Source: Blasia pusilla (taxonomy: Eukaryota). From it: a DNA stretch of 64,000 bases. Location of the stretch: assembly GCA_050084515.1 (NCBI GenBank), contig CM114271.1, positions 11,842,001 through 11,906,000 on the forward strand, read 5' to 3'. This document shows, piece after piece, positions 13,412-61,165 of this stretch. Made by a program: the position numbers and the translations under genes. The notes under the pieces are model-generated. The model saw only the letters and a list, made by a program, of their open reading frames with translations, ran no database searches and was not told the origin of the DNA. Each line of letters opens with the position of its first letter. The stretch's first letter is position 1.

Positions 13412-14083
<672 letters not shown>

Positions 14084-28548: not shown

Positions 28549-28721
<173 letters not shown>

Positions 28722-29436
28722 CATGCAAGCTCTCATTCGCCAAAACAACTTCCGCAAGAACATGTACGACCAAATTCCTTTCCACGCAAGACTATGAAGA
28801 ATGTTGGGTGTGAGCAAGAACGAAGAATGTTGGATGTGAGGAGGAGCGGGATATTAGCCTTAGTGTATTGCAAAGCAAATGCTAGGTAGGTTGGGTGGGA
28901 TGGAGAGAAAGTGAGATGTGTCCGACTTTCAAGCAACTATATCGAAGGCAATTAGAGAACCAGAGGGTGTGTGCAATGCCTGAACAATTTCTTCATAAGT
29001 TTCGTTGTTAATTTCCACAGATGTGATTACCTCCTCGACATCTCCTAAAATTGTATTCAAGTGCTGGTCGTACGCCTGCCGATTACAGTCCGTTATCATT
29101 AGAACGATATCTCCTCACTATCCTCTCCCACAGTTTGGGAGCCTCGATATCATCACAACCCTCCTTCCCGACCCTTAGAGAAATCTTGGGCTCTTAGCGC
29201 GAAACCACAAATCCTACCGGCCACATCATCATGCCTTATAATCCAAATGGGAGCATTTCTTTTAACTCCCACTTATTTGAAAACCTTGACTAGATAACAA
29301 TGACTTAGTGTGCCCTCAATGACTAAACAAATGACTCTATATGAAGCAAAAGGATTAATAATGACTCCAAGAGTCATTGTTATGATTTTTGAGTCATTAG
29401 GTATTGAGTCATAAAATGGGGTATTTCCTTCTAGTG

Positions 29437-32400: not shown

Positions 32401-32612
32401 CCAAAGTGGAAAGTCAACTATGCCATAATGGTAATTTACTTGAAATAGTAAGTTCCTCAATATGGCTCCAAATGAGCCAAAACGTAGGGGAAATCTGCTC
32501 TCACAAGTTACCCGTGGCCTCAACAGGTCATCCTCGACCTCCTGAGGTTTTCCTCTAGCATCTCCAAAGGCGCTCTATTAGATCTCGCCGATCTATCCTA
32601 AAAGACATGACA
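29437..32612 (-). mobile_element. 5' part of a Ty3/Gypsy element (Gypsy-A): terminal repeat, long leader and gag start
   Basis: The terminus TGACA at 32608-32612 begins ~510 bp matching the solo repeats. The gag fragment at ~29437-29710 (FLGAIGTIELHNFI*FRSWCD...FNPFIAWNEMFQHLEGAPMDDYFEF) is homologous to gag at 57515-57720. It is truncated by the CACTA-2 TIR. Confidence 0.8.
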
Positions 32613-39628: not shown

Positions 39629-42600
39629 ATGAGGTTTCTGAAAGGGTGTCGGTGCACACCGGTCCTCACATTACTTGACGACGAGATTTTAAAACGGTCT
39701 GTCCAATTTGTTTTTGTCAGTTGGTGTAACTTTCCAATTTCCAAGTGCCGATCATGAATTTATTCAAACTTAAAGGGTACAACTCTCTGCATACTGGACA
39801 GTCACAGCATACATCCTCTTCAGACGACCTGTGGGTTGATTGCGGAAGTGTATTCGGCTGTCGATGCCTGCAGTTGTTCTGGCCTCGCCAGTTGGTGAGG
39901 AAGTGGCTCCAGTTCAAACCTACTGGAGATGACTTCAATTCCGATCGAATCGAACATGATGCTACCGTTCCATACGAGACAGGTGCGGCTGTTGAGTTTT
40001 GTGATGGATGGATTCTCCCTTCATTCGTACGATCGAAACCCGTGTCTCCTTTGATTGATGTAGATCTTCAGTTCAACATACTATGGGGTAGATTTTTCTT
40101 GTTGCCCTTTTTGCCTGTAGCCGTATTAGCTTCCCACTGTGTATGTGCGTAGCTGTCTGTTTGAAGGCAATCACTTCTACAAGCTGTCGAAACTGAGCAT
40201 GATTCATACCCGCAGAGGAGGAGGCTGAGGATGAAAAGGAGGGTCGTGGCTCCTTTTCAGAGACGCTACCTGAGCTCACAACAATAGGTAAGACGTAGAG
40301 ATTGGCTCTGGGAACCAGCTAGCGGTTGTTCTACGGTTACAATCTATACGGGGAGGTATTGGATCAATCATCTGCGGATATCTAGAGTTCTCTCGAGGTG
40401 ATGTCATTGAACAAATCTCGAGGTTCTGTAAATTAAAGGCTAAACCACGTCGAGATTTACCTGTTTTGTTTCAAAGTGGTCCACACCACTGCTTGAGTCT
40501 TGTCATCAAATGAAGATTGAGGGTGCGCTAAGTCTAGTGTTAGCGCTCATCTATTTCAATTTTGTGGCAAGTTTCTGGACAGATATGAGGTGTGATACGT
40601 CATTTGTGAAATTTCTTCTTATTGATGTCTTGAGTGATTGAAAATCTGGTCAACTGTGCGCTAAAGTCTCCTTGATTGATCGATAATCTAGTTTAACTAT
40701 GCGCGAAAGTCTTACTGTTGCTCGTTTACATCATACCAGAGGAGCCCCAACCACTGAGTAGGCCTCCACGGCCACTCATCCGAGGTCAATCAGAGACATT
40801 GCGGAAACAATATGTGGATACCAAAGATTACCGGTATGTCCGAGCTCTTGCCACAGAGCTGCTGTAGTCCATGTCCCACTCAAGATTCCACAACTCAAGA
40901 TTCTTCTTTCTGCTGCTTCTAACTTGGGGAACTGACATATCTGGATCAGTATTGCGGTAGGAACATGGAATGTCGCTGGTAAGCTGCCTCCTGAAACATT
41001 GGAACTGGACGAGTGGCTCGACAGCTGTCAGGAAGCTGATATTTATGTTCTTGGGTGGGTGTGAACGAACCCTGCACCTTTTCTTGAATCGCCGAGCCAC
41101 CTCTTAAGACCAGTCTCCTGGTGGCGACTAAGCTGCGAAAAGATAGAGATGTCGTTTGAAGCAAGTTGAACATAATAAATAGGAATCTTTCTGCACTTAT
41201 GTCGATTGTTTGCAGTGGAAAATAATCTGTGTTTATCTTGCGCTGCAATTGGCTGCAGCTTCCAGGAAATTGTCCCTTTGAATGCGGGAAATGTGCTGTG
41301 CGTCGAGGATGATGGACCAGCTGCTAAGTGGGAGAATCTGATACGAGAAGCTCTCAATGAAAGGTGCCAATCTTACAGGGGAATGAGCCAGAGTGCTCCC
41401 CACTCACCTTGGAAGGACCTGACAATGGCGGATGTTCCTGAAATCGTTATCGACGAAATTATTGAAGGAGTTGCCAGCGAAGACAAAATTTGTTCAATGA
41501 TGGAAGGCGACCTACCAGAAGTTCGTAACATCAAGCAAACACGAGTGGGCGCAAGCTCTAAACATAAGGCAAAGAAGCAGTACCGAATTATGCCCGATGT
41601 GAGATTAACCCCCGAAGCAAGACTGTCATTAGATTCTAAAGCAACCCCACGAGGGCTTTCAGTTGACCGGAATTTTGCATCGGAACGGAGAAAATCGTCA
41701 TCAGATCAAAACTTCACACAAGACGCGATAATTCCCACTGACTGCAACAATTTTTATGACTGGTCGCGGAACGGAGCTGGACTTGCAGAGAGTTTTCATT
41801 CCTTCGCTGACCAAGAGGAATCTCTCCAAACTCCCCTTTTCCCTCCAGACTCTCAAAGTGGATTCACTGACGAATCCAGTCACAGCAAGGCACGCTACTC
41901 AAGGGTTGCCAGTAAGCAGATGGTCGGGATATTCATCACAGTTTGGGTTCGAACAGAGCTTCGGCGTCATGTACACAACGTAAAAGTGTCTTGCGTGGGT
42001 TGTGGCCTTATGGGGTATTTAGGCAACAAGGTCCGTTTTAGTCCTAACCCCCCCTATGCAGCCTAAAGTGTTGGAAAGCTCAAAGATTTCCAACACTTGA
42101 GTTTTAAGTCCTCTATTCAGCCTGGTCTGGTAGACAGTAAGAACGTGTGCGAAGTTTAAATTTGCTCGGTGACTAATACAATCTGTGTGAGTGTATAGGG
42201 ATCAGTTTCAGTCAGCATGAGTCTTCACCAGACGTCTTTTTGTTTCGTTTGTTCCCACTTAACTTCTGGGCACAAAGAGGGCGACGAACTTCGTCGCAAC
42301 TCCGATGTTGCCGAAATCCTGCGCCGGACCCAGTTTCCTCGTTCTTCAAAGTTACTACAGCTACCGGAGAACATCATGTCACATGAGTATGCTTCTCACC
42401 ATCTGTTAAAGCTATTAGTAGTTGACGATGTACGATTGGGTGCTACTTGCTCATGGATAGTCTGGTGCGAATATTTTGCACTGCTTAGAAATATTTGTCT
42501 CCATCGCTCATGACCTTAACCGTCAAATAATTTCAATCTTCCTAGAAATTGAGCAGTATGTCTCGAATATTCCAGTTGACCACCGTTGTGACAAATTAGT

Positions 42601-43959
42601 TGCAGGATTTGGCTTGGGGACTTGAATTATCGCCTTGCCATGCCTGATCATGAAGCGAGAACCTTGATTGCCAGGGAGGATTGGGAGTTACTTTTAGAAA
42701 AGGATCAGGTACGTGAGAATAACTCACCAACCTTTACATCTGCACATCTACAGAAACCGCCCCGTCATCCTCGACACTTGAAATTTGCCAGAAATTTCTT
42801 TCCATTGCTGGTTTCTTCCATCTACGTGCAGTATCGGAGCTTCTTCTCTCAAATACAGTAGACTGGCAGATTTGCCAGCAACTAGGATGAAAGCGTTCTA
42901 AGGCGTTAAATGTTGAAACCTACAGTTAAGAGTTGGCAAGTGAGAACTAGGGTTCCTTGGAGCCCATAAAATGAATGGATACTGATTACTGTCCCCAGCT
43001 GATGTGGGCTCCAGTTAAAGCTTGAGCAAAATGGAAGGCGTGTGTTTGATGGCTGGGAAGAGGGTCGTATTGATTTTCCGCCCACGTACAAGTATTGCTT
43101 CAACTCGGATCAATATTCTGGCCAAAATCTCAAGGCAGGAGAAAAGAGACGAACTCCAGCCTGGTAAGGATATAGTGGATAGATCTGAATAATTATCCTG
43201 AAGAGTCAAATCTGCAATTGGGATATTTCTATACATAATATTAGTCCGCGAAATATCAACGTGGGGAGGAATCGTTGTGCACTAAAGCCAGAAAGTCTGC
43301 ACTCCCATCGAAGATCCAGTTCCGGTTTGGTAGTGACATCAGAAAGTTCTTTGAAATCGTTTTCGGACATTCGTCGTTCGTCATTTGAATGCAGGTGTGA
43401 TCGGATCTTGTGGCTGGGGAGGAACTTAAGAGTGACTTCATATGTGCGCACAGAGTCGAGACTGTCAGACCATCGACCAGTAAGTGCTGTATTTACAGCC
43501 GAAGTAGAGCGACTCAGTCGGCACAAGTTAAAGAGGGCTGTAACATTCGCCAAGCCGATTCACAAAATGCAACCCGAAGATATATCTCCACACCTTTCAT
43601 CATTGCGAGGGTTGCACAAGGTTCCCCTCGACGAGGTAAATTCACTTCGACAATTTTTTTTGGAAGAAACGCCTACATCATACCTGGATTTGAATCCCTG
43701 AAGCATTCTTTATCCTAGGTGAGGATCTACTGCACTGAAAGACCCGATACTGATGGTGCCTTTTCCATGCTATCATTTGCAGACGAGATATCCAAATCCA
43801 GGAAATGTACAAACACTGCCGTTGCCATCGTCTGCAAAGTTGACGGTTTCTCAATCCTTCAAACTTCGAAAGGAACGGTCAATGCCGGGTGGGTGCATGA
43901 AAGTTGAAGACATGGAGGTGAGAAGAGTTTCACACCACAGAGCGGTGTTCGACACTTAA
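39629..43959 (+). CDS. Type I inositol polyphosphate 5-phosphatase (IP5P1/CVP2-like family), multi-exon
   Basis: GT-AG exons join in frame: (39629-39661 or ATG 39754), up to 39982, 40216-40287, 40740-40833, 40950-41054, 41259-42030, 42199-42386, 42600-42708, 43015-43163, 43395-43635, and a last exon to 43907 or 43959. Motifs: [86 protein letters not shown]. First and last exons are uncertain. Confidence 0.93.
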
Positions 43960-46100
43960 TCTCCGTTGTCTTGCCAATTTGATGAAATAATTCTTGCTCG
44001 TCCTCGACCGCCCAAAATTGCCCTCCTGTCCTGCGATTACTTACCCACCAACTCAAAGTAGGACTCGAGCACCCATATCTGATCGGGAGATTGTGGATGT
44101 GAACAGAATATGTCTAATCAAAGACTCGCGCATCCCAACTTCTTGTCAGCGTTCTGAATTTTTGACCGGTGCTACAAGAGCCTTCCTCATGGGGTTCTAT
44201 TGAACTAACGTTCCCTCGCAGCCACTAAATGTCCGGGGAATCCGTCCCTAGGTACCATCAATTCTCTGGAGCCATCAACTGACCTAGGCATTAGAAGATT
44301 CAGAGCATTCACTCAGCTAAGGTTAACGTTGGCTCTTCAATTTTCTATTCACAAAGTGCCGAAAACAATTCGATACAGTTTACCGACTTACTAGAGATGG
44401 GAATGAATGTCGGGTCTCGTAGATGACATCTGGTGCTACTACACCTCGACAGCTGGCTTTCCCAGCAATTTGTATTTGCTTATACCCACTCATATGCAGG
44501 CGTAAATACTCGTAGTGAACAGATGGTCCGGGATGGAGGCCACGATGGAGAAATCCGTCGGGTGGTGGAATGAAGGGGAAGTCTCATAAATGTTGGAGTC
44601 GACCCTAATCGATAAGCAGTTGATTGCTCTTCCAGTCGGTTCCGGAGGTACGTTCTCTGCTTCTTTCCCAGATGAGTTTACAATTGAGAATCATCAAAGT
44701 TCGCCAATACCGTTTCTCCTTTCCTCCTCGTTCAGCATCCTGTTGGAGTGATTGGTTGTCGGATGCTGAACGACAGCTGATCACTCAAACACTCTGAATA
44801 CTGACGCTGAAGTTGAATACATGTCTCTGCGATAATTCAGTTGACATGGCCAGTCATCTTCTTGGCAGGGAGGGAGTTTAAACAGGGAGACTCATCATCA
44901 CTTCGTCTGATTGCTCGTCGGAGGAAGTTGCGGTTCTCAAAAGCTGGTACCTCGTCGCTTCGGATTATTAAAACGCAAACATTGTGTCGGAAAATCCCTG
45001 TGTCTCACACGCACTCGTCAGCCGCCATCAGACTCCCTACAATGCTTTGTATGTCAACGTCGAGTGTGGTGAATTTCTCGGTTGGTTCCATGGGTCCAGC
45101 CACTCCTGCACCGATTTTGAGCATAAATCATCGCAGTGGGATATAATCGGACTTTGTCACCTTCGCATGTCCAAGGCATCCAACATCCACTGAATCAAGC
45201 CCCGTTAAGGAAAGGACTAGGTACATGCTCCGATATTCATTTTGGAGATTGACTCCAATACGCGAACCATTCTGACGGCCCTTATACTGGCAGGAGGGCC
45301 ACAACTTAAACGCGAGTACTTAGGAATTCTCCAAGTGGCTAAAGTCATGCTTCACGATTTGAGCATGTGTCGAAAACTAGCACCTCAGCATGTTTTCATA
45401 GTAGTCCCTTGTTAGATTTGTATATATGGTAAAGTTGATCTACGAAGTGATCACAATCGTATGTCACATTTAAGAAGCTACAGCGAATGCCTAGCGGAAA
45501 TTTTATAAATTTCACCAAAATGGTTTTAACGAGCAAATTGGTTAATACTTTAAGAAAATTTGTAAAGTGAAAAATCCTTGTCTTCCAAATAAAATCTTTA
45601 TCATGAAATTGTCTAAATCTCACTTATGTTCAATTCAAAATTCAAATTATGGAAAAAAACTAGGTCTGTGAAAGATGATTTGAATTTTTTTGTTTGAAGT
45701 GAGGGTGGAAGTTACACGTCTATGTAAGGTTTTGGATTTAGTATATCAGGCATACAGTAACCAGTTGTGCAAAAATGTGATTTTACTTTTTAAATATTTT
45801 TAGGAAATGTGAAATTTCAATTGTATATAAATACTTTAAATACTTTTTCCCACCTCCTAATAATTTACTCCATTCCCGAACCTTCTCACCATTCTATTTT
45901 GTTGAAAAAGTAGTAACGTGAGCCTCCCTTAAAGAACCCCACTCTACAATAATTGTTGAAGAAACTCCCCTCCCCCAATTGAAACTACACCTACCTCTTC
46001 TATAAAGATTGAAGCCTCTTTCTTAAAACTAACATTCACTCTTCATTAATTATATCAATCCCCTCTCCCCAAGTTTGTTTAGGGAATTTGTTTTCCCTCC

Positions 46101-46620
46101 CGTCACATCTTAGTTGACCCACTTGTAAAGTTTTTGCCGTGGGGATGGCATACAGGCTTGACTCAGTCAACTGGTATCAGTGTGCTCATAGGTTACCATT
46201 GGAGAGGCTATTTTTTGGGGGAAGACTTTTTGGTTCTTCCCAATGCTATAAGAGAGGGAGATATGGCTTTCCCAAACCATCTTTCTCATGTTGGGCCTTA
46301 GGAGCACCTTTGTTGCTTTGTATATAGTAGGAATTAGGGTACAGGCGTACGGATTCCCTCATAACGGAGGGTGAATGTAGTTCGATATACTGATGTAGAT
46401 TTGAAAGTGGAGTTGGCCGTGTGAGTTATTTTTACTCTGATTTTACTTGAGAAAGATGTGAAGGGGAAGAGGGGAATTCGTTGTATGCATGTAGGCAAGC
46501 GAGTTGCCTTGATGGGGAGCCCCTGGAGACGATGTTTGGCGTATGTGTTGTCTTTTTTCCGTTCGGAAGACTGTAAGCAGACACGCTGCTCTTTTTTTAT
46601 TGATTTTCGTTGGTAGTATG
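46101..46620 (+). mobile_element. 5' terminal-repeat and leader fragment related to Gypsy-B
   Basis: 46190-46620 aligns by eye with 56010-56450 (gatggctttcc..ccatctttctcatgttgggcc; gtaggcaagcgagttgcctt..ggagcccctggagacg). The fragment may extend to ~47480. Confidence 0.7.
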
Positions 46621-48464
46621 CTAGGGTAGAGCAGTAGTAGAGTCACAAAGAGGAACGTTTGGGTGTAGCGTGTATATAACAACATCAAGGTAGTGGCTTG
46701 TATCGAGAGAGAAGAGAAAGAGCTTTAGAGCTTGCAACCATTGGGGGGGCTGCCAAGTAAAAGCGGCTAAAGTAGGTCGTAGCAGTTTAGATTAGGTTGT
46801 GAAGGCTCTTGGGTCAAATAGCCACTTAGGTCGTGCAAGTAAAGAGTGGAGACCATCTTAGGGAAAGAATGGGGCTAGAGAGAGTAGTAGGCGTGCAACA
46901 AGCGTTGAGCCGATATAAGGCAGTAAGAGCCTTAACTAGAGTGGGTAGTATCCGAAGTTGGGGAAATGCGTGTCAAACCAGGCGAGCTTCGCGAGTTGAG
47001 GACTGGACCCATAGAAATATGTACATCAAGAAGTAAGTGGAGGTAGGGAGGCACAGAAGGCCCAAGGAGGAGCGTTGAAGGGGCGGAAGGGTTGCCAAGC
47101 ATAGCCGCGGCAGGGTAGAGCGCGCCTAACAGGGTCATGAGGGAGCCATTGCGGGTCTAGTAAGGTAAAGTTACATGCAAGAGGGGAGGGAAAAATTAAT
47201 GTGGAGCAAGATGGGCGTACAGGAGGTGATGCCCGAGTGAGAAGGAATCGGGCTCCATAGGGAGTTTTGTGGGCTCTATATCATCCATTGAGCTTCACAT
47301 AGCTAGGTATAAACGAGCATAGGGAGGTAGGGTGTGCAAGCTTGTGTGGAGACGGAGTGAAGGTGGGGGTGCGTTTAACCAGGGTTGAGCGGCCTCGCGT
47401 AAAAAACTAGAGCCCTGGCATTAACTACGCCAAGTAACCCTCCCTGTGCAAACAGGTTAGGGGGTTCCACTCGGGATACTGCCACAGTGATTCAGGATGC
47501 ACCGATGCTGTAATATGAGTTTTGGGGAGCACTAGATATCCTGTCCACCGCATACGCAGTGTCTTCCATCAATCACAATGAGGCATGGACATGATGTCAT
47601 GTCATGGCCCTGCATGCAATGCCGTCAATAGGAATTCCCCATGATGGAATCATGGAATATGATGCTATAACCTTATAGGGGGCTGGTATTTTGGCGGGAG
47701 AGAAGAAGAAAGGAGAGTCTCTCTTCCAAAAAAAGGGCCAAATCCTTAACCTCTCTTCAAAACTTTCTTCAATTTTTGAGGTTTCTCCCCTACTTTAAAT
47801 GCAAGAAATTTTTAAAAGTGAGTAAGAAGTGCACCACTTTGGGGGAAAAACAAACCATATTTTTTCAGACCAAGATGTGAAGATGGAAATGTAACGTCAA
47901 CAATCAATCATGAAAGTGAATGAGAGTTCATCATCTCTCTCTAGAGAGACCAACCCCCCATCATCAATGAATTTATAGGTGGAATTCCGATATTGTAGGG
48001 CAAAACAGGGAAGATGAAATATGACAGAGCAGACAAAGTAAAGGTGATTTGTGGCAACATATTGGCGGAAATAAGCAGAGGTCGCCAACTCATGTGAGAA
48101 GAGGTCTTTGATATGTCAACAAGTAGTCATGAACTTAAAGGAGCTCAGGTGCACTTGGTCGTGGAGGCGACTAGTAAACTCCCAACTGCTTTCTCGTAAT
48201 CTGCCTTTGCTTCCTAGCAGAGTGCAAATAGTTGCTTCCTCTTCCCCTCCAATAGAAGAATGTTTCTTCCACTCTGGCATATCGCTCTGAACTCGCCCCA
48301 GAAAGTCTCACCAGATCTAGGATCAAGTCTCCGATTCTTGAGCAGAGCTTCACGAGGGTCTTTCTCAATGTCGGGGACTTTTCCCTCCCTCCAAGCACAG
48401 ATTCATGAAAAGTCTTGGGGAAAATTGTAGAGACGTATTCTGATATGAGTTGGTGACCTCTACT

Positions 48465-49540
48465 GCGACGGGTTGCACCGAAATTTGTTCAAAAACCTCT
48501 TTTGGTATGAGTTGGCGGCCCTCAGAAGCAGTCCTCCACATGCTTCCTCTAGACATGCAACCCGTCGGAAATCGATGGGTTGCAATAGCGGAAAATCCGG
48601 ACGTGCTACATGTCGGATACCGATAGGTTGCATGATAGGATTGAGATTCATAAGGGTAACAATAAAAGAACAAATTATCAAGACGTTTAATGTTTCAAAA
48701 ATTTTGTTACTCATGACATAACCTTGGTAGGTACAAAAAAATTGAAAGAGGGAAGTCATCTAAAATTCACAGAAGTGAAAAATCCGAACTTGCAACTTGT
48801 CAAAATCCGACAAGTTGAATGACATCATGAAAAAAAAAGGGCTCAGAGGGAGACCTCCACTGGCTGCCTCTAGACAAGAAACCCATGGATTGGAGTAGCA
48901 GACAATCATCTGGACCTGCAACCAACCAATCATCCGAACCTCCAACATGTTGGATTCAGAGAGGTTGCATGACAGGATTGAGATTCATAAGGGTTAAAAA
49001 ACAAGGCATGTTATGAAGACCTATCCTGTTTCAATTTTGTCACCTTAAAGGTGGAATTATCCTGCAATCTGTCCGAAACCGATGGGTTGCTCTCCAGATA
49101 GTGACATAATTTGTAGCGCTCGCTGATTGCAACATGTCAGATACCGACGGGCTACTCATTAGGCTAGACAAAAGAGCAACATGTCGGAGTCCAACGGGTT
49201 GCTCTACAACTTAGACCGAAACTTGCTTGCAACCCGTCGGGGTCCGACGGGTTGCAAGTAGAATTGTGCCTTACCTATAAGCAACCCGTCACTTTCCGAT
49301 GGGTTGCTTATCATCTTAGGCACAATTCTACTTGCACCCCATTGGGTTCCGATGGGTTTTAATGATCGAAAATAGAAAATTGGATTTGCAACCTGTTGGG
49401 TTCCGACGGGTTGTAAATCCAGTTATCTGTCTCCGCTGATGAGCAACCCGTCGATCTCCGACGGGTTGCACTTCATGTCACTACTATCACTATCTGTCTC
49501 TGCTGACATGCAACCCGTCAGAATCCGACGAGTTGCATGT
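48465..49540. repeat. Array of ~27-bp palindromes GCAACCCGTCGGANTCCGACGGGTTGC
   Basis: About 14 degenerate copies. Perfect 15-bp arms at 49226-49258. Confidence 0.9.
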
Positions 49541-51552
49541 CTGAACCTAGTGTCTAAAATATGGACAAAAATACGAAACCAGCAACTTGGAACTTACCCG
49601 AACTTGATTTGTCGTGGGTACTCATTTTTTATCATCCATGATTGCGTCGTCCGCCAATTGAGTGACCTCTTCACGCACTGAAGGTTGAAGAGCTTGTCTT
49701 CACTCCCTACAGTCAGCACCAAGAAACACCCCTTGTCACTGAGATATGTGTCCGCGAAAGAAAATAGGAGAGCGATCTGGTCATTGGAAAGTGGGATATT
49801 CCAGTCTGGGACAATGTCAGACGGATTGTCGCCCCACAAAAAAAATCTAGAAGGAAAATCGGCTATGAGGAGGTCCGCCGCCACCTCCTCAACGATCCCA
49901 TGGACCGTCCATGGGATGTGCCCATTTTGGATAAGTTTACGCCCTAGCACGGTCAACTTCTCGACGACAGCTGTCAACTCTTGAGTTGAAAAACTTTGCA
50001 ATTTATCGACAAGATCAGTCGGGTGGAGAAGGACAGTAATCCTACTTGTTGTTTCCCTATGCCTGCCCAAGGATGATGGAGTGTATTCCACATCCTTATC
50101 TCCTCCCTCAGACGATCCTGGCGCCTCTCGCTTTCGCTTCTCGCGAGTCTGGTGTCGGCTTGTTGGTGTCTCGGTTACCTTAGACTCCACAGGCATTTTC
50201 TTGGACGAGGATCTTGTCTGCCCCTCTAGCCTTGAAGACTCGGCCTCAGAATGCCTCGACCCCTTCGCCTTGGCTTTCAAATTTTTCCTTGGCGGTGAGT
50301 ACCTTGGACACCAACTGAGCTGTCTCGATGGCTTGCTCCTCCACATCTCCTTCAAAATATTTGTCACTCTTCACAAAGTTGGGGATGTCGTCCTCCGAGT
50401 TGTTGAAGTCCAACCAGATTGGACAATTCAAGACCTCCTACTCGAACATGTCCTGCCCCATCTCCATGTCGTACATGGAGAATCCCTCTCCATCAAGAGG
50501 AGAAGCCCAAATTTTGCAAGCTGCCAGATTTTTGCGCCAGGTACCTGCATTCACACAATAGATGAGGTACCTGTATACCATCCATTGGGCAGCTCTTTGC
50601 CGTGACTCGACCTCTTGTTCCTGAAGATCTCGCTTCCTCTTTACGAAATCCCGTTTTCTCGCTTCTATTTCTTTGTCCAGATCGGCCTGAGGGAGGATGT
50701 GATTCTTGAACATCGTTTGAAAGCCTAGGTTTTTTGCTAACTTATCCCTGATCTCATCAAGCCACAATTCATAATCTTTTGAAGCCTCGAGGTTGGCCTC
50801 CTCCGGAACTAACTCAATCTTTTTGAGCTTCGCTTGTAGACCCAAAATCATCAACTTCCCGAGAAGCCGTAGTGCGTCCCAGAAGAACCATTCTCTAAGG
50901 CAATGGGAGATCACTGGGTCTGATACTCTTGGATCGGAGGGTGGTGTGTCACCTGCTTCTGCGCATCAGTCCCCTCGGGACTGATTTTCATCGGTTAGAT
51001 CCGCCTAAACTCAGATATCTCGGAAAGCGCAAACCTGTGCACGCGCGCAATCCATTCCCTTCTCTCCGATCCGACCCTGTGGGTCTTCGTCCCTCTTCTG
51101 CTGGCGCTTGATTATCACCTTCAACTCCTTGTAGAACTCGTGTCCAAGTTTGGGGTTGAGAATTGCAATGTACCGCTGCATCTTGCTCGTAGTGAACTTT
51201 GTGGCTGTAGACACGACAATCTAAATGAATTTTTCCCACTTCGACATCAAGATGTTTTCCCTTCACTCCACTTCCAATGTGGCGCTCTCCTTGGCTGCCA
51301 AGATTTTGGACCAGCAGAGAATCGTGACCGCTGCATCTTGGGAGATGAAGGTATTCGCCCAAGTCTTCTTAATTTGAGCTCCCTTCGCGAGCATCTCATC
51401 GACCAGATCCTCACCGAGGAATCCCTTATACTGCGATGGGTGCCTTGTAAGCACCTTTTTGACACTATTGCATTCTTGGATCCAATGGTGGGTCAAGCTC
51501 CGCTCGGATACAATCCTCCAAATGCGAAAACAAAGTTAGAATAATGATCCAC

Positions 51553-52545
51553 TTCAACCCGTCGATTTCCTTCTGGTTGCACCACAAAGTATGAAAGAAA
51601 AGATCATGTGAAGAGTCAGTGGAACCCGTCGGAATCTGATGGGTTGCACCACTCTCTACAGATTGCAAGGATGCGCAACACGTCAGACTCCGGCGGGTTG
51701 ATACAAACTCTTGCAGGCCCAATTAATGTAGTTTTTGCAACCCGTCGGACTTCAACGGGTTGCACCACTATTCGCAGATGGCAACGATGTGCAACCCGTT
51801 GGGGTCCGATGGGTTGCACATGCATGTCCATCGGCATGAAGTGATGCATCCCATCGAACTCCAATGAGTTGCACCATCTCAGAATATTGTAAGGATGCGC
51901 AACCCGTCGGACTATGGCGGGTTGCCACAATCTCTTGGAGATGCAATATCTTGGAGGCCCAATTAATGTAGTTTCTGGAACCGGTCGGACTTCGACAGCT
52001 TGCATCAGTGTCCGCAGATGGAAACCATGTGCAACCCATCGGGGTCCAATGGGTTGCACATGCATATCCATCCGCATGAAGTGATGCAACCCGTTAGAGT
52101 CCGACGGGTTGCAAGGAGGCCTGAGAAGCACAAATCTTACCCTACTTTTGAACCAATTTACCAAAAACAAAGAGGTGGTTGCAACTTGTCGGATTTGGAC
52201 CGGTTTCTTTTTCTCCAAAGTGCCTCCTACTTGGTCATTATTTCACCTTTTGTAACCCGTTGGACTTTGATGAGTTGCTTTTAGGCCTCCAATGACTAAT
52301 TTACTAGACCATTCTGCAACCCGTCAGATTGCAGAACACATGTTTCATCCAGAAACTTCACTAGAAATATGTTTATTTTGCAATCCGTCGGACTCTGACA
52401 GGTTGCAGTAGCCAGGTTTCATCCAGAAATCCAAGCTACAAATTACTCATTTTGCAACCCGTCGGAGTCCCAGAGGCTGCAGGACGGTCTAGCGAAATCT
52501 GATAGAAGATGTAAATTCAACCCCCTAAACTCCAACGGGTTGCTG
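51553..52545. repeat. Second palindrome array (intronic), including a 240-bp tandem duplication
   Basis: About 16 copies. AATTAATGTA recurs at 51721 and 51961 with colinear flanks. Confidence 0.9.
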
Positions 52546-53415
52546 GACTATATCCTAAATTGCCCATGGAAGGTCAAAAAGGCTTATGTCTATCATCAAC
52601 TCCTATCATTATTTCCAATCTATATTCTGAACATTTCAGCGACCAACGGGTTGAAGCAATCAAAAAATATTCAGAGAGAAAGATTAACTTACGTATTCAT
52701 TGAATGCATCGCCATCTCCATCATTGCCATGTGATGCGGAAAGGCATGGAGGACAAATTCCCTCACGTAGAAATGCACCTCCAATGAATTTGGGCACTCC
52801 TCTGCAAACCGTGACCATGGCATGAACGTGTGGTTCCCATCCCAGATAAAGAAATAGAGATTCTACATCCAGCTGAATTGGGTTTTTTCAATAGCTCTTC
52901 TGAACTCCTCGTCTCTGATCCTCCAGAATATGTGTCCAAGGCCTCCAGGTCTTCTTCCGTCACCAGAGCCTGCGTTCCATGTTCATCATAAGGCTAAACA
53001 TAGAACGGAGGGAAGTTGTTGATAAAAGATATTGTGGCAACCGACTACTTCAGCTTTGCGATGTCCTCGTCTGACTGAATTTTGCGGACGTAATCCATGG
53101 TCCGCAGTTGACAAAGTGGAATTCTTGGGGACTTGTGATTGTCCACCACTGCAATCTGCTTTACAACCCACAATAATGTCAAGAATGTCAACACGCTGCT
53201 CTTTCATATATGCCGATTAAGAAAGGAATTAAGAAAGCTCTTTCAGATATGCAGATGTCTGCTTACCCTCTAAAAAATTGGGTTGGTGTCGAGGTCGGCC
53301 AGTTGCTCTGGGATAGGAGGTGGCAAGTCTATAGGAAATTCATCCATGTGGAAGAGGTCAATTTCTTCCACCAGGCTGAAGGATGACGACGACTCTTCTC
53401 CTCCTTCTTCAAAGA

Positions 53416-54056
53416 TGTCACCACTTTTTAGGATAGATTGGAGAGATCTGGTAGAATGGCTTCGCGAGTAGAGTAGGACAGGCTCATGACGTCAAGGATG
53501 ACCTGCTGAGGTCCCGGAAAACTTGAGAGAGGAGGTTTCCCCTTTGTTTCGGCCCATTTGGAGCCATATAGAGAAACTTACTATTTTGGGTAAGTTTCCA
53601 TGTTTGGTAGCATTGACTTTCCACTTTGGGAAGTGGCCCTTGACCTGCTAGAGCAGCTTAATAGCCAAGGAGGTGACCTACGAGCAAAGGTTACCGAGGA
53701 GAGAGCTTGGGAGAGGGAAGGGGGTATACCTCAAGGAGAGAGAGCTTGAAAGCTCATTCTCTCTTTGTTGAACCTCTTGGCATGAGGCGGCAGAGCTATG
53801 GTCTTCCTTGCCTTGTCAATGTAACCCAAGCCTCTCATTTGGAGAGTGGGTTTGGTTTGACATTGAGAGAGAGTGCACACATTTGAGAGCTATGGTGTTG
53901 AGAGGGATTGGATCTACTTGATTTACAAATTGGAGATATTTTGGTACTTCTTGTCTTGTTGTTTGGATGCCATGAGTTAGCATGGGATCGTGCGTGTTTG
54001 TGTGTATTTTTTTTGACAGCGATGTATGTTGTGCAACGATGTGTATGCGCATGACA
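53416..54056 (+). mobile_element. Solo-LTR-like insert, same family as 11982-12626
   Basis: TGTCA...TGACA termini with AAGA/GAGA flanks. Removing it restores the minus-strand frame EIVDIS-EEGGEESSSSFSLVEEIDLF. Confidence 0.87.
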
Positions 54057-54814
54057 GAGATGTCCACTATCTCCACACTTTCAGTCCTCATCACCTCCTC
54101 GTCGGTCTTTTGAACTTTTGCGGTCTCTTCAGAAGATTTTAAGTTCATCGTGTCCCCAAACCTCATCGGGTAGATATCCTCCATCTCAACGTTGTCTGTA
54201 GGAAAAGTGGGGCTTTCTTCCATGGCAATAGCCTTTTCCCTCTGCCCTCATGATAGATGCGTCGAGACGCTTCTTCTCTCTCTTCTTGTCCGCGCCTCTT
54301 TTCTTCAAGGCCTTTGATGCCTCGGCCTCTGCGTTCCGCCTTGCAAGCTCCTCTAGCGCAAGCTTTGCCTCAACCTCCTGCGTGTGTATTTTTGCTTCCC
54401 TCTCCCGGTCCTCTATCTCTAATTGCCTAATTTCTGCCGCCGAGCGAGGGCTGGGAGATGGCAACAAAGGAGTCCTTATGGACTTGGGACTGACGCTCCT
54501 AACCTTCGTTGCTTGTGTTTTTTTCCTTGTCATTGTGAATGTCAAAGATCTACACATGTGCACTCCTGAAACTATACTTAAACATAATCGACTATGTCAA
54601 CTCCTGAAGCGCCGTCACTCGGAGCGTCGTAACCTTCCAGCAAAGGGGCTTTGAGTAATCATCGTGTTCAGTAGACGCGGGGACCTCAACTGTCGAGAGG
54701 ACTCAGTGGAGGACAAAGAGAGCCAACTGAAATTATGGAGTGAAAAAGAGAAATGAGCAAAATTTGTGCCTAAAATAGTTTTTGAGCCATTGAGCTGACC
54801 ATTGGGTCTTGGGA

Positions 54815-55590
54815 ACCATTGGATCGACAGGTTGCACGGTTCCCTCGTCGAGGAAAATTGATGGGAGATCCCCGTGCAACCTCGTCAGACTCTGACGGGT
54901 TGCACGGTTCACTCGTAGTAGGAAATCAATTCGAGGTCCACGTGCAACCCGTCAAACTCCGATGGGTTGCACGGTTCCTTCGTAGTAGGAATACGATGTG
55001 AGGTCCCCGTGCAACCTGTTGGACTCTGACAGGTTGCAAGGAAGAAGCCGACCATCATGCAACCTGACGGAACCAAATAGGTTGTACGGGCAGGGGATAC
55101 GTATCGAGAACCCCGTGCAACCCCACAAACTCCGATGGTTTGCCTAGGGTCCATGCATCCTAGAGGGAAATCATTGCCGTGCAACCTGTCAAACTCCGAC
55201 GGGTTGCAAGGACGAAGGTGGGCAACGGGTTGCAAGTTTTCCGATTCGGACAGGTTGCAGTCATCGTCGGGACTTCCTAAGACCCCATGCAACCCTTTGG
55301 ACTCCGATGGGTTGGAGGAGGAGGAGATCAAATTGGGCCATCCCCAGGGTTGGCGGGGAACATAATGAGGGGTTGCGACAGGGAAATCCACCCCGGCTAT
55401 CCGCATGCAACCCGTTGGACACCGAGGGATTGCACTAAGGAAATCCTCTTCACTTTCTCACCCACCATTACGAATGATGGGTGAGAAAGTGAGAACCCCA
55501 TTGGATTGCAACTTGACGGAACCCGACGGATTACAACCGAACGGATTCCAAAATTTTGCAACCTGTTGAACTCCGACGCGTTGCAAATTT
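54815..55590. repeat. Third palindrome array, upstream of the ParB/MTase-like gene
   Basis: About 12 degenerate copies, e.g. GCAACCCGTCAAACTCCGATGGGTTGC at ~54944. Confidence 0.88.
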
Positions 55591-55611
55591 TTGGAGTCAG
55601 ACAATTTGCAA

Positions 55612-55794
55612 CACTAGAAGAAATGTGTGGTTTTTATGACTAGGCTTTAAATGACTCACCGAAAGAATGACTCAAATTATGACTAAAATGGTTTACTCCT
55701 CAATTTATGTTTGCACAACTCACATAATCATCCACTTATTCCTAAAGTAGTTATTAATACCCTTTAGTCAAGACTAGTCGTACTTGTTGCACTT
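55612..55794. mobile_element. CACTA-3 terminus, interrupted by Gypsy-B
   Basis: CACTAGAAGAAATGTGTGGTTTTTATGACTAGG followed by TGACT repeats, matching the other CACTA TIRs. Preceded by CAA, the predicted TSD. Confidence 0.8.
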
Positions 55795-57322
55795 TGTCAT
55801 ATCTAAGTAGCCGATAGGCCGAGATCTATCGTGGATAGGGCATAGGAGCCAGCGGACTATCTTGAGTGTAACTTTGTCCTACGATGTCGGATGAGGTTGA
55901 GGATAGGTCCATTATGTCAGGAATGTCATTTCTGACAACTTTCATGTTGAGATCTTTTACAGTCGGGTGACTTGTTGACCAGGTCACCCGCCCCTAGTAA
56001 CCTGTGCGTGCACGTTACCAAGGGGAGGGCTATTTTTAGGGAAAGAGCCTTTTGGCTCTTCCCAACCCTATATAAGAGAGGAAGATGGCTTTCCTAAGCC
56101 ATCTTTCTCATGTTGGGCCGTTGGAGCACCTCCCTTGTATGTGTGTGAGCTAGGACTAGGGTGCTAGCGTCCGGATTCCTTGATAGCAGAGGGTGGATGA
56201 GGCTCGATATGCCGATGTAGATTGAGGAGTGGAGTTTTAGGCCGGGTGTGCCATTTTTACTACTCTTTATTTTTACATGAGAAACATGTCAGGGGGCTGG
56301 TGGGAATTCGTTGTTTGCAGGTAGGCAAGCGAGTTGCCTTGGTCGGGAGCCCCTGGAGACGCGTGTGTTGTGGGTGTTTGTCATTTTTCTATTTGGAAGG
56401 CCGTGGGCGGAAGCGCTGTCCGCTTTTCTCATATTTTTGTTGGTACGGATTGACGCGGGACAACAGCCGAGTGTATAGTGTGTGGTGGAGCGTCGGGTGT
56501 ACGCGAGTGAGGGTGTCGAGAGAGAGAAGAAAAGAGAGCTGACGGACGGCGGCGGGCGGCGGGCGACGAACGGCGCGCCCCCCTCTCCCCCCATAGGACC
56601 GCCGGCCAAAGTCCCCCAACGTGGTAGGATTGGAGCGGCCGTGGTTGGTAGGACGGACGAGGTCAATCCGGCGAACGTGAGTTGAGATTTGCCGGACATG
56701 ATTGGGAGCCGACCAGGGTGAGTCACGTAACATGCCGCGCGTGAGGATAGACAGAGAAGTTTGCGCGACATGATGTTTTTGGGCACAGGCGTTGCAGTAT
56801 GTAAGAGAGCGATGGATGGAGGGGTGTGCATGATGCCGACGGGTTGTCCGCATCTCTTGACGGGAGGATTGACGTGTTGGTCGAGGAGAGTGTTGTGTTG
56901 CGGAGATTGTCATATCATGTGGAGGAGTGCATGTTGACGGTGCAACAGGTTGGAGGGCGTGATCAGGTTATCCATTCGAGTCCCTTTTCCCGCACTTGTC
57001 GTGTGTGATTGAGAGTGCTGGGTATTGGGTAGTAGCTAGTGCTAGGTGGGTGCAGTGATGGTGATGAGTGTAGATTCTTTTCATGTGTAGCATGTTGGTG
57101 GATATACGACGGTTGCCGAGTAGGGGTCACGGGTATGACCCGAGAGAGTGTCGCTAGGTTAGTTGAGTCAGTTGGGAGGCTCATGGTGAGCCCGAGTGTT
57201 GAGCGTGCGTGAGGCCGAGTATGTCATCACAGGATTGATGTTAGCATAGGTGAGCTAGTGAGGAGTGTGGGAGACTCTTGGTGAGTCTGAGTGCTTGAGC
57301 GGGTGAGACAGGGTTTGTCATC

Positions 57323-58995
57323 ATGACGTTCTTCCAGGGTTCGGAAGAATGGGGTAGTGCAAGCAGTAGTAGTGGTGTGACACGGAGTGGAGTGAGGTAC
57401 CGAGGGGTTACTAGTGAGGAGCTACCTCGACATCCATCCGTGGCTGGATCGTCATCACTAGACACTGGGTCTAGTGACCAGATCTCAGACAGAGACAGTA
57501 GTACTTGGTAGGAGATGGACGACATGAGCCATGAGGGCATGCGTTGTTTCTCGGGTGCAGTGGGCACCATCGACTTAGATGATTTTATCCAGGAGTTTGA
57601 CACATGGTGCGACTTCTAGGAGATACGGACCCCGACACGGTTCAACCCTTTCATGGCATGGAAGGGGTTATTCCAGCACTTGGAGGGTCCTCCGATGGAT
57701 GACTACATGGAGTTTCGATCATTATATTCAGTAGAGATCGATGCCTGGAGGATGTATTGGGCTCCAGGGTATGTGTTCACTAGTGGTCGCGAAGCATATG
57801 ATGGGATTGTGAGAGGAGAGAGATCACACCATCGGCCGGAGACTAGATGGAGAGGAGGGGTGAGACAAAGCGATGTGGCGAGAGACCTCGGTGGTAGAGG
57901 GCCACCCAGCATTTCACAAAGTGGAGTTCTTCCGGCAGTTGGGGAAGAGCTACCAGGCGTACCCACCGACAAGTGAAGAGTCTCTGATTTTCAGCGACGA
58001 TCGGTTGAGAGTCTGAGAGAGGCATTCACACGCATGAGGCGCCTGATCATTGCTACGTTTGGAGTGACTGAGGCGCAGTCAGTCCAATATTGGTACGGGG
58101 TTCTGGACCAAGAACTACGGAGGAGAGTCCGAGATGCGGTGCTGATTCACATAGCGAAGCCCACATTGAAGGTGGTCTTTGAGTTGTCTGAGCGTATTTA
58201 GCTCAACATGAGTGAGGAGCAGGTAGTGATCGATGGATTTTCTTGAGAGTCGACGGGTCCACGAGCGATGGTGACCCCACAGGTGCCACAACGAGCACCA
58301 GTGCCATGGGAGCGGGCCAGTGTGCCTAGAGAGCAGGGCGGATACCGTGAGCCTATGAGGCAACGACCCGCACCTACATATGTTGCCTAGCAGGGACCGA
58401 TGTGGTCTTGTTGGACGTGTGGAGGGTTCCATAGGCAGAGAGACTGCCCACAGCATGGGAGAGGACCACCAGCGCCTCCGATTGCTCAGGAGCCACATAG
58501 GATGGCCCCACCATAGCACCAGTGTGACCATTGCCATAGATATGGTCACACTAGGGATAGATGTTTTGACCTTTGCCGAGGGGCACGTCCAGAGGTAGGC
58601 CGAGGGCCAGGGGGCGGTCGTCCTGGAGGAGGTCGGGGAGTTCTTCCTGGATGTGTTGGTAGAGACCATCACCAGCCAGAGGAGATGGAGCAGGAGCACC
58701 AGAGCCGGCACTTCTCTCACGCATCGATCAGTTGGAGCAGAGGATTGCTGCCATGATGATGATGCAGCTTAGGGAAGGCACGGAGCTGCGAGTAGCTAGT
58801 GTGACTCCAGCTTCTACCTCTTACCCTGACCCGGGTGAGGATCTCGCCAGTATGGGATTTATGTATAGTGCAGCCCAGGTTGAGGCAGCTGCAGTGGTGA
58901 CTCGGGGTGCTGCGAGAGGCAGCGAGCCATCGAGAGGTGGAGTTGAGATTGACCCACCAGAGGGGACCGATGGGCGGCAGGCTAGGGTTCCATAG
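57323..58995 (+). pseudogene. Gypsy-B gag with two zinc knuckles
   Basis: FSGAVGTIDLDDFIQEFDTWCD; ESLREAFTRMRRL; CWTCGGFHRQRDC at 58409-58447; CDHCHRYGHTRDRC at 58523-58564. Contains in-frame stops. Confidence 0.8.
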
Positions 58996-59399
58996 TCGTT
59001 CACATTGTCGGAGGCACTACACACACCATTGATGGTGCCTCGACGACCAAGGTGCCTACAGTTCAGGCACCTACGTCGACGTCACGAGGAGTTGGAGTGA
59101 CAACTCCTATGCCGGCTCAAGTGGAGTCAGTGTCGACCATATTGTTGGAGGTGACCACCAGAGTGAGTCAGACTCCGCTATTTTCCGCCATAGAGTTGGC
59201 GACGTTGGGAGTTGGACCAGCTGAGGTGTTTGTTGGCGCCACGTTGTGTGAGCGTGGAGAGATGATCGCTTGTTGTTGAGGTAGTTGAGGAGGTGGTGGA
59301 CTTGCCCTCGAGCGGTGCTTGGGACGTTCCCCACAAAGTCATGGCATGCGGCGGCGGCGGCGAAGTTGGTAGATATGCCAGCTCGACCGGCCATAGAGC

Positions 59400-59800
59400 G
59401 AGCAGTGGTGACACCTGGAGTAGTGTTACTCGATAATCGAGTTGGAGTATTTCGCTTGGTTAGTCGGACGGGGACAATATACCACCCGCAGCGCGTCCTA
59501 CTTGATTCGGGAGCGCAACCCTTGATGTTAGGGACGACGGCGTGTTTAGCGTTGGGGTTACGAAAGGCCGACATTGAGCCTTGTTCCTTCTTGATATAGA
59601 CCTCGATTGGAGGCATATCACCCACTCAGTATATGACTCGACGGGAGATTGTTGTCAGAGTCCAGCCAGAGCATGCAACGGATAGTGCTATGGTGCGCAC
59701 ACGTGCGATTACGACACCAGCTCAGTCGTACGATGTGTTGGTGGGGAGTACAATGTTATATCCCCTAGGATTCATCCTTGACTTCTGGGAGGAGACCGTT
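59400..59800 (+). pseudogene. Gypsy-B aspartic protease (retropepsin)
   Basis: RVLLDSGAQPLMLG with DSGA at 59504-59515, and downstream YDVLVGSTML. Confidence 0.85.
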
Positions 59801-60221
59801 GCTTATCGGCCAGGATGGCGGTCAGGTGATGGCTGGATGAGTCAATTACCCGTGCAGTTTGCAGGACGAGGTGGTCAATCACAAGGCGAGTCTGTGACCA
59901 CGTTGGCAGCTTTCACAGGTAGTGTTAGCTGGCCAGGAGAGTTGTTGGAGGGGAACGCACATGTGGAGGATGTCCTAGTAGCGGATAGTCCCACGGAGAG
60001 ACATGCCATGGCGGGTGTCTCTTCCCATGTTGGCGAGGCCTCTTCACCATTGTCGGGTACGACTCGAGAGCTACAGAGGAGTGCCAACGATCTCGTGAGG
60101 CAAGCGTGGAGTCATGTTTTTGTCCCAGAGCAACGAGAGTCACGTGGCGATCGGGCTCTTGGAGTGGAGACGTTGACCCCACTGGATATCACACCTGTTG
60201 TGTGGCAGTGCCCAGAGGAGG

Positions 60222-61165
60222 GTGTTAGATCTCTTCGGAGGGATTAGCACTGGATTGGCTGCACTATTGCAGGCGGGCATACGGGTGCATCAGTATCTTT
60301 ATGTGGAGAGAGATGAGACCGCGCGGCGAGTATCATTACGTCACGTGGCGAGATTGGTCCAGAGGTATCATGAGTTATTTCCGGTATCTGCAGTACGGGT
60401 ATATCAGCATACGCTACCCACCGACATCTCTTTGGTGGGGGCGCAGGATGTGGATAGACTTGGCACCATTCATTTGGTGATTGCTGGATGGCCATGTCAG
60501 GGTCATTCATCAACTGGCCGAGGATTTGGATTGCAGGATCCGAGCTCAGGGATGTTTTGGGAGATGCTGCAAGTAGTACGACACTTGCAGGAGAGTCAGA
60601 CATGTTCTCCAACGTACATTTTGGAAAACGTGCCCTTGTTGGGAGACACTTGTGCACGTGTGATGACAAGTGTACATCAGGTGAGGTCCTGGTTGGGACC
60701 TGCTGTATTGTTAGATGCAGCGAGAGTTGGGTCACGTGCCCATCATCCATGACTATGGTGGACGAACCTGATACCATCAAAGGTACTAAGTCGAGCATAC
60801 AGTGGAGTCTAGAGAGCACCACATCTCACAGTGGATGCTATTTTGGGCTCAGGGCGTCGATCTCAGGTGGTGACACGGGATGATAGACCACCGTTGGCCA
60901 TGGCCAATAGGGTGGGGGAGTTGAGGGTAGCCTTACCTACCTTGGTGAGCTTCCCAGCATCCCATGCCTTTCGTCAGGGAGGGCGAGGCATGATTTGGGA
61001 TGAGGTGATTGGAGCATTGGAGGAGCCTACAGCAAATGAGCGCGATCGTGCCATGGGGTTCACTACCGGTACTACGGCGGTGCCAAGGATGACTGAGGCA
61101 TCACGGAGACAGGTGTTGGAGCAAGCGATGGACCTCAACTGTCTCACATGGATAGTCAACCTAGG
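60222..61165 (+). pseudogene. DNMT3-like DNA (cytosine-5) methyltransferase domain within pol
   Basis: Motif I VLDLFGGISTG, II YVERD, IV LVIAGWPCQGHS (PC at 60492-60497), VI YILENV (ENV at 60624), VIII LLDAARVGSRAHHP*LWWTNL, and IX-X ERDRAMGFTTGTT..RRQVLEQAMD. Intronless, with stops at 60750 and 60810. Confidence 0.9.

Follow-up and report, generated by a model that had tools for sequence, protein, structure and literature searches.

In the ParB-methyltransferase (ParB-MTase) fusions of bacteria, phages and plasmids, a ParB/Srx-like domain lies on the N-terminal side and a permuted amino-MTase domain on the C-terminal side. Here we describe a gene whose closest known counterparts are these fusions, found on the minus strand of a 64,000-nucleotide stretch of the genome of the plant Blasia pusilla (NCBI GenBank assembly GCA_050084515.1, contig CM114271.1, positions 11,842,001 to 11,906,000 of the forward strand). 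This whole stretch, called the window below and numbered from its first letter, is eukaryotic, plant-like DNA with many repeats. We read the locus, with a probability of roughly 0.6, as one dead copy of a plant gene that has introns, exists in many copies and carries a ParB-like and a beta-class MTase-like domain, a probable new eukaryotic variant of the ParB-MTase fusions. The intact product would begin with a charged N-terminus, followed by the ParB/Srx-like domain, a conserved region of about 420 residues, a basic linker and an amino-MTase-like domain that would be circularly permuted (beta-class, N6_N4-like) and interrupted by an intron. A ParB-MTase fusion of a prokaryote or a phage is the most likely ancestor of the family. 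The two domains would lie about 700 residues apart, against about 100 in the known fusions, and unlike the fusions the window gene carries spliceosomal introns and is present in many copies in a plant genome.

MTase domains have been described in a few eukaryotic settings with which this gene can be compared. In Marchantia, MpDN4MT1a and MpDN4MT1b, two tandem single-copy genes, encode the sperm writers of N4-methylcytosine (4mC), which have a TSPPY motif and demonstrated activity (bioRxiv 10.1101/2021.02.12.428880). Compared by description, they likewise are prokaryote-type amino-MTases with the prokaryotic motif order in a liverwort lineage, and the only relatives of the window gene from named organisms are also from liverworts (Riccia); the word ParB is absent from the portion of that paper available to us (bioRxiv 10.1101/2021.02.12.428880). 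Bdelloid rotifers have a domesticated amino-MTase of bacterial origin, N4CMT, which is tied to the control of transposons; going by the available portion of its description, this is an active enzyme of animals, and no ParB domain is mentioned for it (PMC8885841). The MTase domain of the DIRS1 retrotransposon resembles the state that we propose for the present family, in that it is carried by a transposon and has its catalytic residues replaced in every copy, and binding rather than methylation is its supposed mode of action; it differs in being PCIF1-derived and unpermuted, and in lying within a retrotransposon polyprotein, without a ParB domain (Iyer et al. 2016, PMC4738411). By the same account, prokaryote-type amino-methyltransferases are believed to be few in land plants (PMC4738411).

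Our search of the literature, with subscription journals and bioRxiv supplements outside its scope, found no ParB-MTase-like family described in land plants or their transposons, and the family seems undescribed. To our knowledge, the Marchantia sperm 4mC writer is the sole characterised plant case of a prokaryote-type amino-methyltransferase, and the present family, if our reading is true, would be a second, independent plant capture of a prokaryotic DNA-modification gene. With its introns, its many copies, its ParB-MTase architecture and the loss of the catalytic aromatic residue throughout the family, it would then illustrate from nature how an MTase can be put to new use in a repeat, as a module for binding. 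That only three relatives stand among 1.84 billion representative proteins also shows how easily annotation misses genes of this kind.

Gene structure and decay

The minus strand from an ATG at 54533 to a stop near 48171 or 48214 reads as one gene of four exons (Table 1), the splicing of which is plausible. The first-pass annotation of this DNA had proposed a spliced gene, and this stands: there are three introns with GT..AG borders (donors GTAAGC, GTAAGT and GTAAGT, in order) and consistent phases, though the introns are fewer than it had implied. Over introns 1 and 2 the flanking frames join without adjustment. At the end of intron 3 lie two AGs 4 nt apart, giving an intron that ends at 48389 or at 48385 and two frames for exon 4, which the annotation had mixed. 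Exon 4 is readable in one frame and better with one frame change near 48340, and it stops at 48173-48171 or at 48216-48214. An intact form of the gene would have about 1,070-1,090 residues. Every peptide string that the annotation had quoted was recovered in the minus-strand translation of 54563-48145: YFFIWDGNHTF is read from the frame 52862-52692, DLLIADFPS and LSDKGCFLVLT from 50370-49597, REKSPTLRKTLVKLCSRIGDLILDLVRLSG from 48488-48174, and GRNILLLE in the neighbouring frame, 48402-48217. The letters are thus real, though short motifs alone are little proof.

The copy at 54533-48171 is dead and does nothing, its reading frame being broken by nine in-frame stop codons, 3-4 frameshifts and one repeat insertion. 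The lesions of exon 1 are a frameshift near 54250, a stop at 53272-53270, one codon ahead of the donor, and the repeat insertion; those of exon 2 are two in-frame stops and a frameshift near 52865; and exon 3 has six stops between 51515 and 50249, together with a frameshift in its linker near 50300-50250. The stretches 53203-52766 and 51535-50249 are otherwise single frames, broken by two and six stop codons respectively.

The repeat inserted in exon 1 is about 640 bp long, and the proposal that 53416-54056 is a removable insertion was borne out by two further copies of the repeat in the window, one at 11982-12626 that is 81.5% identical and one in reverse complement at 32102-32603, and by the GACATCT target duplication on its two sides (54064-54058 and 53419-53413, 645 nt apart). 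The insert plus one GACATCT heptamer amounts to 645 nt, and its removal therefore keeps the frame. Identity among the three copies of the repeat in the window is 78-82%.

Relatives of the gene

When a 258-aa ORF (open reading frame) of the gene was compared with 1.84 billion representative proteins, only three matches were found at E<=0.001, and none of them carries a name. They are a 488-aa hypothetical protein of Riccia sorocarpa (P0001; E 5.8e-9, 31% identity), a 305-aa protein of Riccia fluitans (P0002; E 2.1e-5) and a 104-aa metagenome fragment (P0003; E 1.6e-4). In tblastn, P0001 aligns in the same order with two segments of the window, 51187-50297 (E 2e-5) and 49983-49615 (E 2e-14). Both Riccia protein models end at the position of intron 3 and are without the ParB exon and without exon 4.

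Wider searches added no further member. Word-indexed homologue searches with the 258-aa piece, with P0001 and with an alignment found nothing beyond P0001; two protein scans of viral contigs found no relatives; tblastn against phage records gave only chance matches to Microviridae, with E of 2 or more; and no second copy of the gene was found inside the 64-kb window. One metagenome locus was considered as a relative and rejected as a false positive, being a bacterial RelA/SpoT gene that shares one 8-residue word.

A probable ParB/Srx-like domain and a probable permuted methyltransferase-like domain

For the comparison with known domains, hhalign was run locally with read-through translations of the window as queries, an X standing at each break. 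The reference sets came from bacterial genomes and comprised 26 MT-A70 domains, 30 CcrM-like N6_N4 enzymes, 79 YhdJ-like enzymes, 13 ParB-MTase fusions and 30 chromosomal ParB_N domains, and 100 composition shuffles per pair served as the background for the scores. Reversed queries scored below the forward ones in all seven hhalign pairs.

Against ParB_N, the exon 2 query scored 25.7-25.9 (probability 22-31%, E 5e-4 to 1e-3; for the score of 25.7, probability 22-26% and E 7e-4 to 1e-3). Its shuffles had a mean of 11.6 (sd 2.2, maximum 18.7), so that none of the 100 reached the observed 25.7, and the reversed query scored 10-12. The window's ParB part resembles the ParB parts of the bacterial ParB-MTase fusions most, with a score of 25.0, against 16.5 for chromosomal ParB. 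Exon 2 reads, in order, RIPL..L, a DIAKLK stretch, an insert of about 37 residues and then YFFIWDGNHT. The first-pass annotation had placed a ParB/Srx domain here on the strength of the last of these; the match of exon 2 to ParB_N speaks for such a domain, whereas the signal lies upstream of DGNHT, in the aligned stretch RIPL..L and ..DIAKLK-x-SVATISF.NN.PP.YV. Only when the 37-residue insert is omitted is the whole ParB domain colinear, and DGNH is then aligned with the GxxR motif (25.9; reached by none of 100 shuffles). This arginine motif of ParB takes forms such as GERR, GHGR and DGHHR. On a similarity that is weak but specific, exon 2 appears to hold a ParB/Srx-like domain.

The annotation had further read the order of the MTase motifs, with motif IV before motifs X and I, as that of the beta class. 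The alignments agree, for exons 3 and 4 are colinear on the N6_N4 template, each half with a score that none of 100 shuffles reached: the first half (49598-50049) falls on template columns 8-151 and exon 4 on columns 188-260, of 323, which is the permuted order. The first half, as a four-sequence alignment, scored 19.3-23.5 against N6_N4 (E 0.01-0.05; shuffle maximum 18.5), with ADFPS placed on DPPY, LSDKGCFLVL on LKPxGxxxV and W.IKNEYP on W.K.N..P. Exon 4 scored 21-23 against the YhdJ-like enzymes (21.1 in the shuffle test, reached by 0/100) and 19.4-20.5 against N6_N4 (19.4 in the shuffle test, likewise 0/100), with K-S-P on QKP, GD.ILD/LDP..G..T on GDxVLDPFxGSGTT and GRNILLLE on GRxxIGIE. 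Over the three MTase pairs the E-values were 0.005-0.05, with hhalign probabilities of only 1-7%. In the uninterrupted frame of exon 4, the PADLOC MTase_II model gave the sole HMMER match (E 0.0066, 13.5 bits), residues 6-78 of the exon lying on profile positions 188-260 of 302. Motif I of amino-MTases is a Gly-rich loop, FxGxG-like, for S-adenosylmethionine (SAM); the corresponding region reads LDPRSGET only after the frame change near 48340, the uninterrupted frame giving LVRLSGASS. These results point to a beta-class amino-MTase-like domain split over exons 3 and 4, again on a likeness that is weak but specific.

The MTase-like domain might instead belong to the MT-A70 (Ime4/METTL) clade rather than to N6_N4_Mtase, a placement that we find rather improbable. 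That clade likewise has a permuted MTase, its motif IV being of the DPPW type, and it accounts for the three best ESM feature clusters: for residues 108-258 the nearest clusters were MT-A70 (0.84-0.86), with N6_N4 at rank 22 (0.82), values below the bar of 0.9. In its other frame, exon 4 ends in R.G...FWGE, which by eye recalls what we take to be the C-terminal signature of MT-A70. The profile-profile comparison does not bear this out, however, as the first half scores 16.3 against the 26 bacterial MT-A70 domains, a value reached by 9 of 100 shuffles, exon 4 scores 11.5-12.5, and the Pfam MT-A70 model (PF05063) has no match.

The likeness to ParB and to MTases might also be a matter of chance, the gene family being real and its members copies of a lineage-specific repeat gene of unknown fold. 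We hold this to be unlikely, and it is here that the observations weighing against our assignment of the domains belong. The hhalign probabilities range from 1 to 31% and the pairwise E-values only from 5e-4 to 0.05, and the score of 19-20 that the ParB query also obtains against the unrelated YhdJ profile shows where the noise ceiling lies. The DGNHT segment alone is at chance level against the ParB profile (10.4, reached by 12 of 100 shuffles) and, in this decayed copy, has a threonine at the position of the ParB arginine. Against the MTase part of the fusions themselves, both halves of the MTase-like domain reach only low scores (13.5-17.9), the best fit of exon 4 calls for a frame change of our choosing, and the ParB and MTase parts are seen together in one copy only. 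Pfam, including N6_N4_Mtase (PF01555), matched none of 13 window pieces at E<=1 and none of the three relatives; PF02195, the ParB/Srx N-terminal domain, had no match on the exon 2 pieces; and NCBIfam and PHROGs gave 0/12 matches apiece. Sequence searches of the PDB returned no MTase or ParB, only designed repeat proteins, SRY and DnaK. The AlphaFold check that the first-pass annotation had proposed gave no evidence on the fold, both AlphaFold2 models being unusable (predicted local distance difference test (pLDDT) 39.1 for the 151-aa first half, from four sequences, and 45.3 for P0001, from five), and the ESM Atlas held no usable feature match for P0001 residues 1-340, whose own model had a pLDDT of 0.33 and template modelling (TM) values <=0.33. 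Against chance stand the three separate segments, each of which beats 100 of 100 shuffles in the expected family and at the expected colinear positions; the independent HMMER match to a type II MTase model, in the expected C-terminal part of the profile; the ESM lead toward permuted MTases; and the order of the domains, which is that of known bacterial ParB-MTase fusions. We nevertheless do not file the gene under PF01555, PF05063 or PF02195, because these curated profiles are unmatched and their defining motifs do not appear in what we read.

Motif IV and the likely loss of methylation

The consensus of motif IV in amino-MTases is (D/N/S)PP(Y/F/W/H), in which the aromatic residue is the stacking partner of the target base once this has been flipped out. 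In the present family the equivalent is ADFPS in the window, MDLPT in P0001, VDLPK in P0002 and VDIPN in P0003. All four members keep the aspartate and one proline, and all four lack the aromatic fourth residue, having S, T, K and N instead. Read from the aligned sequences, the degeneracy of motif IV is a trait of the family and not an accident of this copy, because the form D-hydrophobic-P-x recurs in 4/4 members, against DPPY or SPPY in the ParB-MTase fusions. The first-pass annotation had left a choice between a pseudo-enzyme and a decayed copy; the degenerate motif of all four members makes the former likelier, though this copy has itself decayed too. Because the base-stacking aromatic residue is missing from motif IV, we infer that the MTase module has lost methylation and would now act, if at all, in binding DNA or SAM.

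That the family might instead be an active DNA or RNA amino-methyltransferase, a writer of N6-methyladenine or 4mC with an unusual motif IV, of which only this copy has decayed, seems to us very improbable. In its favour, the aspartate and second proline of motif IV are kept in 4/4 members, and exon 4 retains LDP..G..T and GR....E, like motifs I and II of YhdJ-like enzymes; prokaryote-type 4mC writers also exist in liverworts, as the Marchantia report describes (bioRxiv 2021.02.12.428880). By that report, however, the Marchantia enzymes carry TSPPY (bioRxiv 2021.02.12.428880), and in our family not one member has an aromatic residue in the fourth place.

Copy number and mobility

Five DNA runs of the same organism contain parts of the stretch, and their contigs were compared with it at 80% likeness. 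Many diverged contigs lie on the exons in 4/4 DNA runs, and the gene is, because of this, a repeat family. In runs X1, X2 and X3, respectively, exon 3 is covered by 28, 22 and 14 contigs at 49797, by 21, 15 and 12 at 51195 and by 14, 10 and 6 at 50637, and exon 2 by 13, 15 and 10 at 52885. Single exon positions thus have 8-28 distinct contigs per run in 3-4 DNA runs, figures that speak of copy number and not of dispersal. The hairpin-rich introns and exon 4 have little contig cover, from which we draw no conclusion. By far the highest contig cover in the four DNA runs is that of the ~640-bp repeat.

In our view the family either travels within a repeated unit that is probably mobile or is such a unit itself. 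The first-pass annotation had considered the gene borne by a transposable element and had seen no transposase in the window. The multi-copy state of the exons fits the former claim, while neither a transposase nor termini were found; the latter holds for 46-56 kb, the ORFs of CACTA transposases being over 25 kb distant. Mobility is opposed by the lack of any transposase family among the 13 ORF pieces of 46-56 kb, of inverted termini between 46600-48500 and 54500-56100, and of a target duplication of the whole unit in our searches.

The same absences of transposase, inverted termini and unit target duplication would suit a family that is no passenger of a transposon, either a host multigene family spread by segmental duplication or the relic of an integrated virus. 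The many-contig cover is essentially limited to the exons, and ParB-MTase genes are, in the portion of the review available, typical of phages and plasmids (PMC4738411). We nonetheless regard this alternative as quite doubtful: dozens of diverged contigs fall on single exon positions, and the copy is heavily decayed and lies among other repeats. A recent viral relic is further contradicted by the conserved spliceosomal introns, and a viral relic in general by the lack of relatives in viral contigs.

A pair of direct repeats brackets the gene (Table 1). We considered these 424-432-bp repeats as long terminal repeats and set this aside, as no TG..CA ends, primer-binding site or polypurine tract were seen. 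A joint between 46318 and 56155, present in three contigs with 12 other letters between, was considered as an empty site; we read it instead as one more copy of the repeat that flanks the gene. The right repeat copy (56014-56445) has far higher contig cover than the left.

Palindromic hairpin arrays

About 30 copies of a palindrome of 28-30 bp, with the arms TGCAACCCGTCGG and CCGACGGGTTGCA, lie in three arrays of ~1 kb (Table 1), and the repeat family that they form (D1) counts 32 copies. The first-pass annotation had not listed them. In this window they occur only where the gene is non-coding, namely upstream of the ATG, in intron 2 and in intron 3. When the 12-mer was searched at <=1 mismatch over the 64-kb window, 28 of 29 matches fell within 48465-55584, where 0.08 would be expected by chance. 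All eight units that were folded form hairpins, at -10 to -19.7 kcal/mol as DNA, and for each of them none of 200 shuffles matched the value. The variants GTTGG, CCGAT and CCCATC resemble CpG decay. Rfam had no family in 46000-57000, and a scan of viral contigs for the palindrome gave no match.

It is speculative that the protein of the element binds the palindromes. If it did, the gene could encode the sole protein of a class of plant DNA elements that seems not to have been described, in which a ParB/Srx-type domain, perhaps a nuclease or NTPase, and a beta-class MTase that has lost catalysis and been retained to read sequence would act on the 28-30-bp palindromes packed in the element's own promoter and introns. 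Such an arrangement would be a parS-like system inherited from a ParB-MTase of a phage or plasmid and since converted to a mobile unit that recognises itself, or to a unit that marks itself. We give this extension of our reading little credence.

Table 1. Parts of the gene, with the repeats in and around it, in window positions
Feature	Positions	Strand	Description
Direct repeat, left copy	46192..46615	+	76% identity to right copy, 9822 nt apart
Exon 4	48171..48388	-	MTase-like second half: K-S-P, helix, GD.ILD / LDPRSGET, GRNILLLE
Intron 3	48389..49597 (or from 48385)	-	GTAAGT..AG, phase 2; donor GG/GTAAGT; array of about 8-10 palindromic hairpin units
Palindrome array, intron 3	48460-49560
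Exon 3, last part	49598..50249	-	Basic/Ser-rich linker, then MTase-like first half: ADFPS (motif IV equivalent), then VPDW, LSDKGCFLVLT, W.IKNEYP
Exon 3, first part	50250..51515	-	Region of ~420 aa, fold unknown, conserved with Riccia proteins
Intron 2	51516..52692	-	GTAAGT..AG, phase 2; donor AC/GTAAGT, acceptor ..ttggag/G; array of about 15 palindromic hairpin units
Palindrome array, intron 2	51550-52545
Exon 2	52693..53158	-	ParB/Srx-like domain; hhalign against ParB_N
Intron 1	53159..53266	-	Donor GAGG/GTAAGC, AG acceptor, phase 0
Exon 1	53267..54533	-	ATG 54533; charged Lys/Arg/Glu-rich N-terminal region, no family match; donor GAGG/GTAAGC
Inserted ~640-bp repeat with one copy of the 7-bp target duplication	53413..54057	.	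645 nt, removal in frame
Palindrome array, upstream	54815..55620	.	About 9-10 units; 67-nt tandem units at 54815-55016
Direct repeat, right copy	56014..56445	+	Brackets the gene together with the left copy

Other features of the window

The CACTA-type transposase region mentioned above occurs in two diverged copies, 7796-9606 and 20665-22488, with 65% identity over 1.85 kb, and includes a transposase ORF at 8701-9384 (Transposase_21, E 1.9e-48). The plus strand at 41179-43698 holds exons that probably belong to a host gene, which is of the inositol polyphosphate 5-phosphatase type (Exo_endo_phos2, with E 9.9e-9 and 2.2e-5); some 4.5 kb separate it from the decayed gene, on the 3' side of the latter.

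A plus-strand ORF at 60177-60749 matches the C-5 cytosine DNA methylase family (PF00145, E 1.1e-8, profile positions 5-115 of 324) and has PCQ and ENV motifs. The DNA around it, 55425-61000, is GC-rich (52-56%), and the left part, as far as 57500, where the stretch compared with the DNA runs ends, lies under very many contigs. In the portion of the literature available, repeat-borne DNA methyltransferases are reported in charophyte and dinoflagellate retrotransposons, and the ORF may by analogy be of this kind (PMC5890265); none of 14 ORFs nearby matched a reverse transcriptase or integrase family. A 344-nt tandem duplication at 13412-14090, of 96.5% identity, contains a dinucleotide microsatellite that recurs at 28551-28723, the matches being offset in 2-nt steps.

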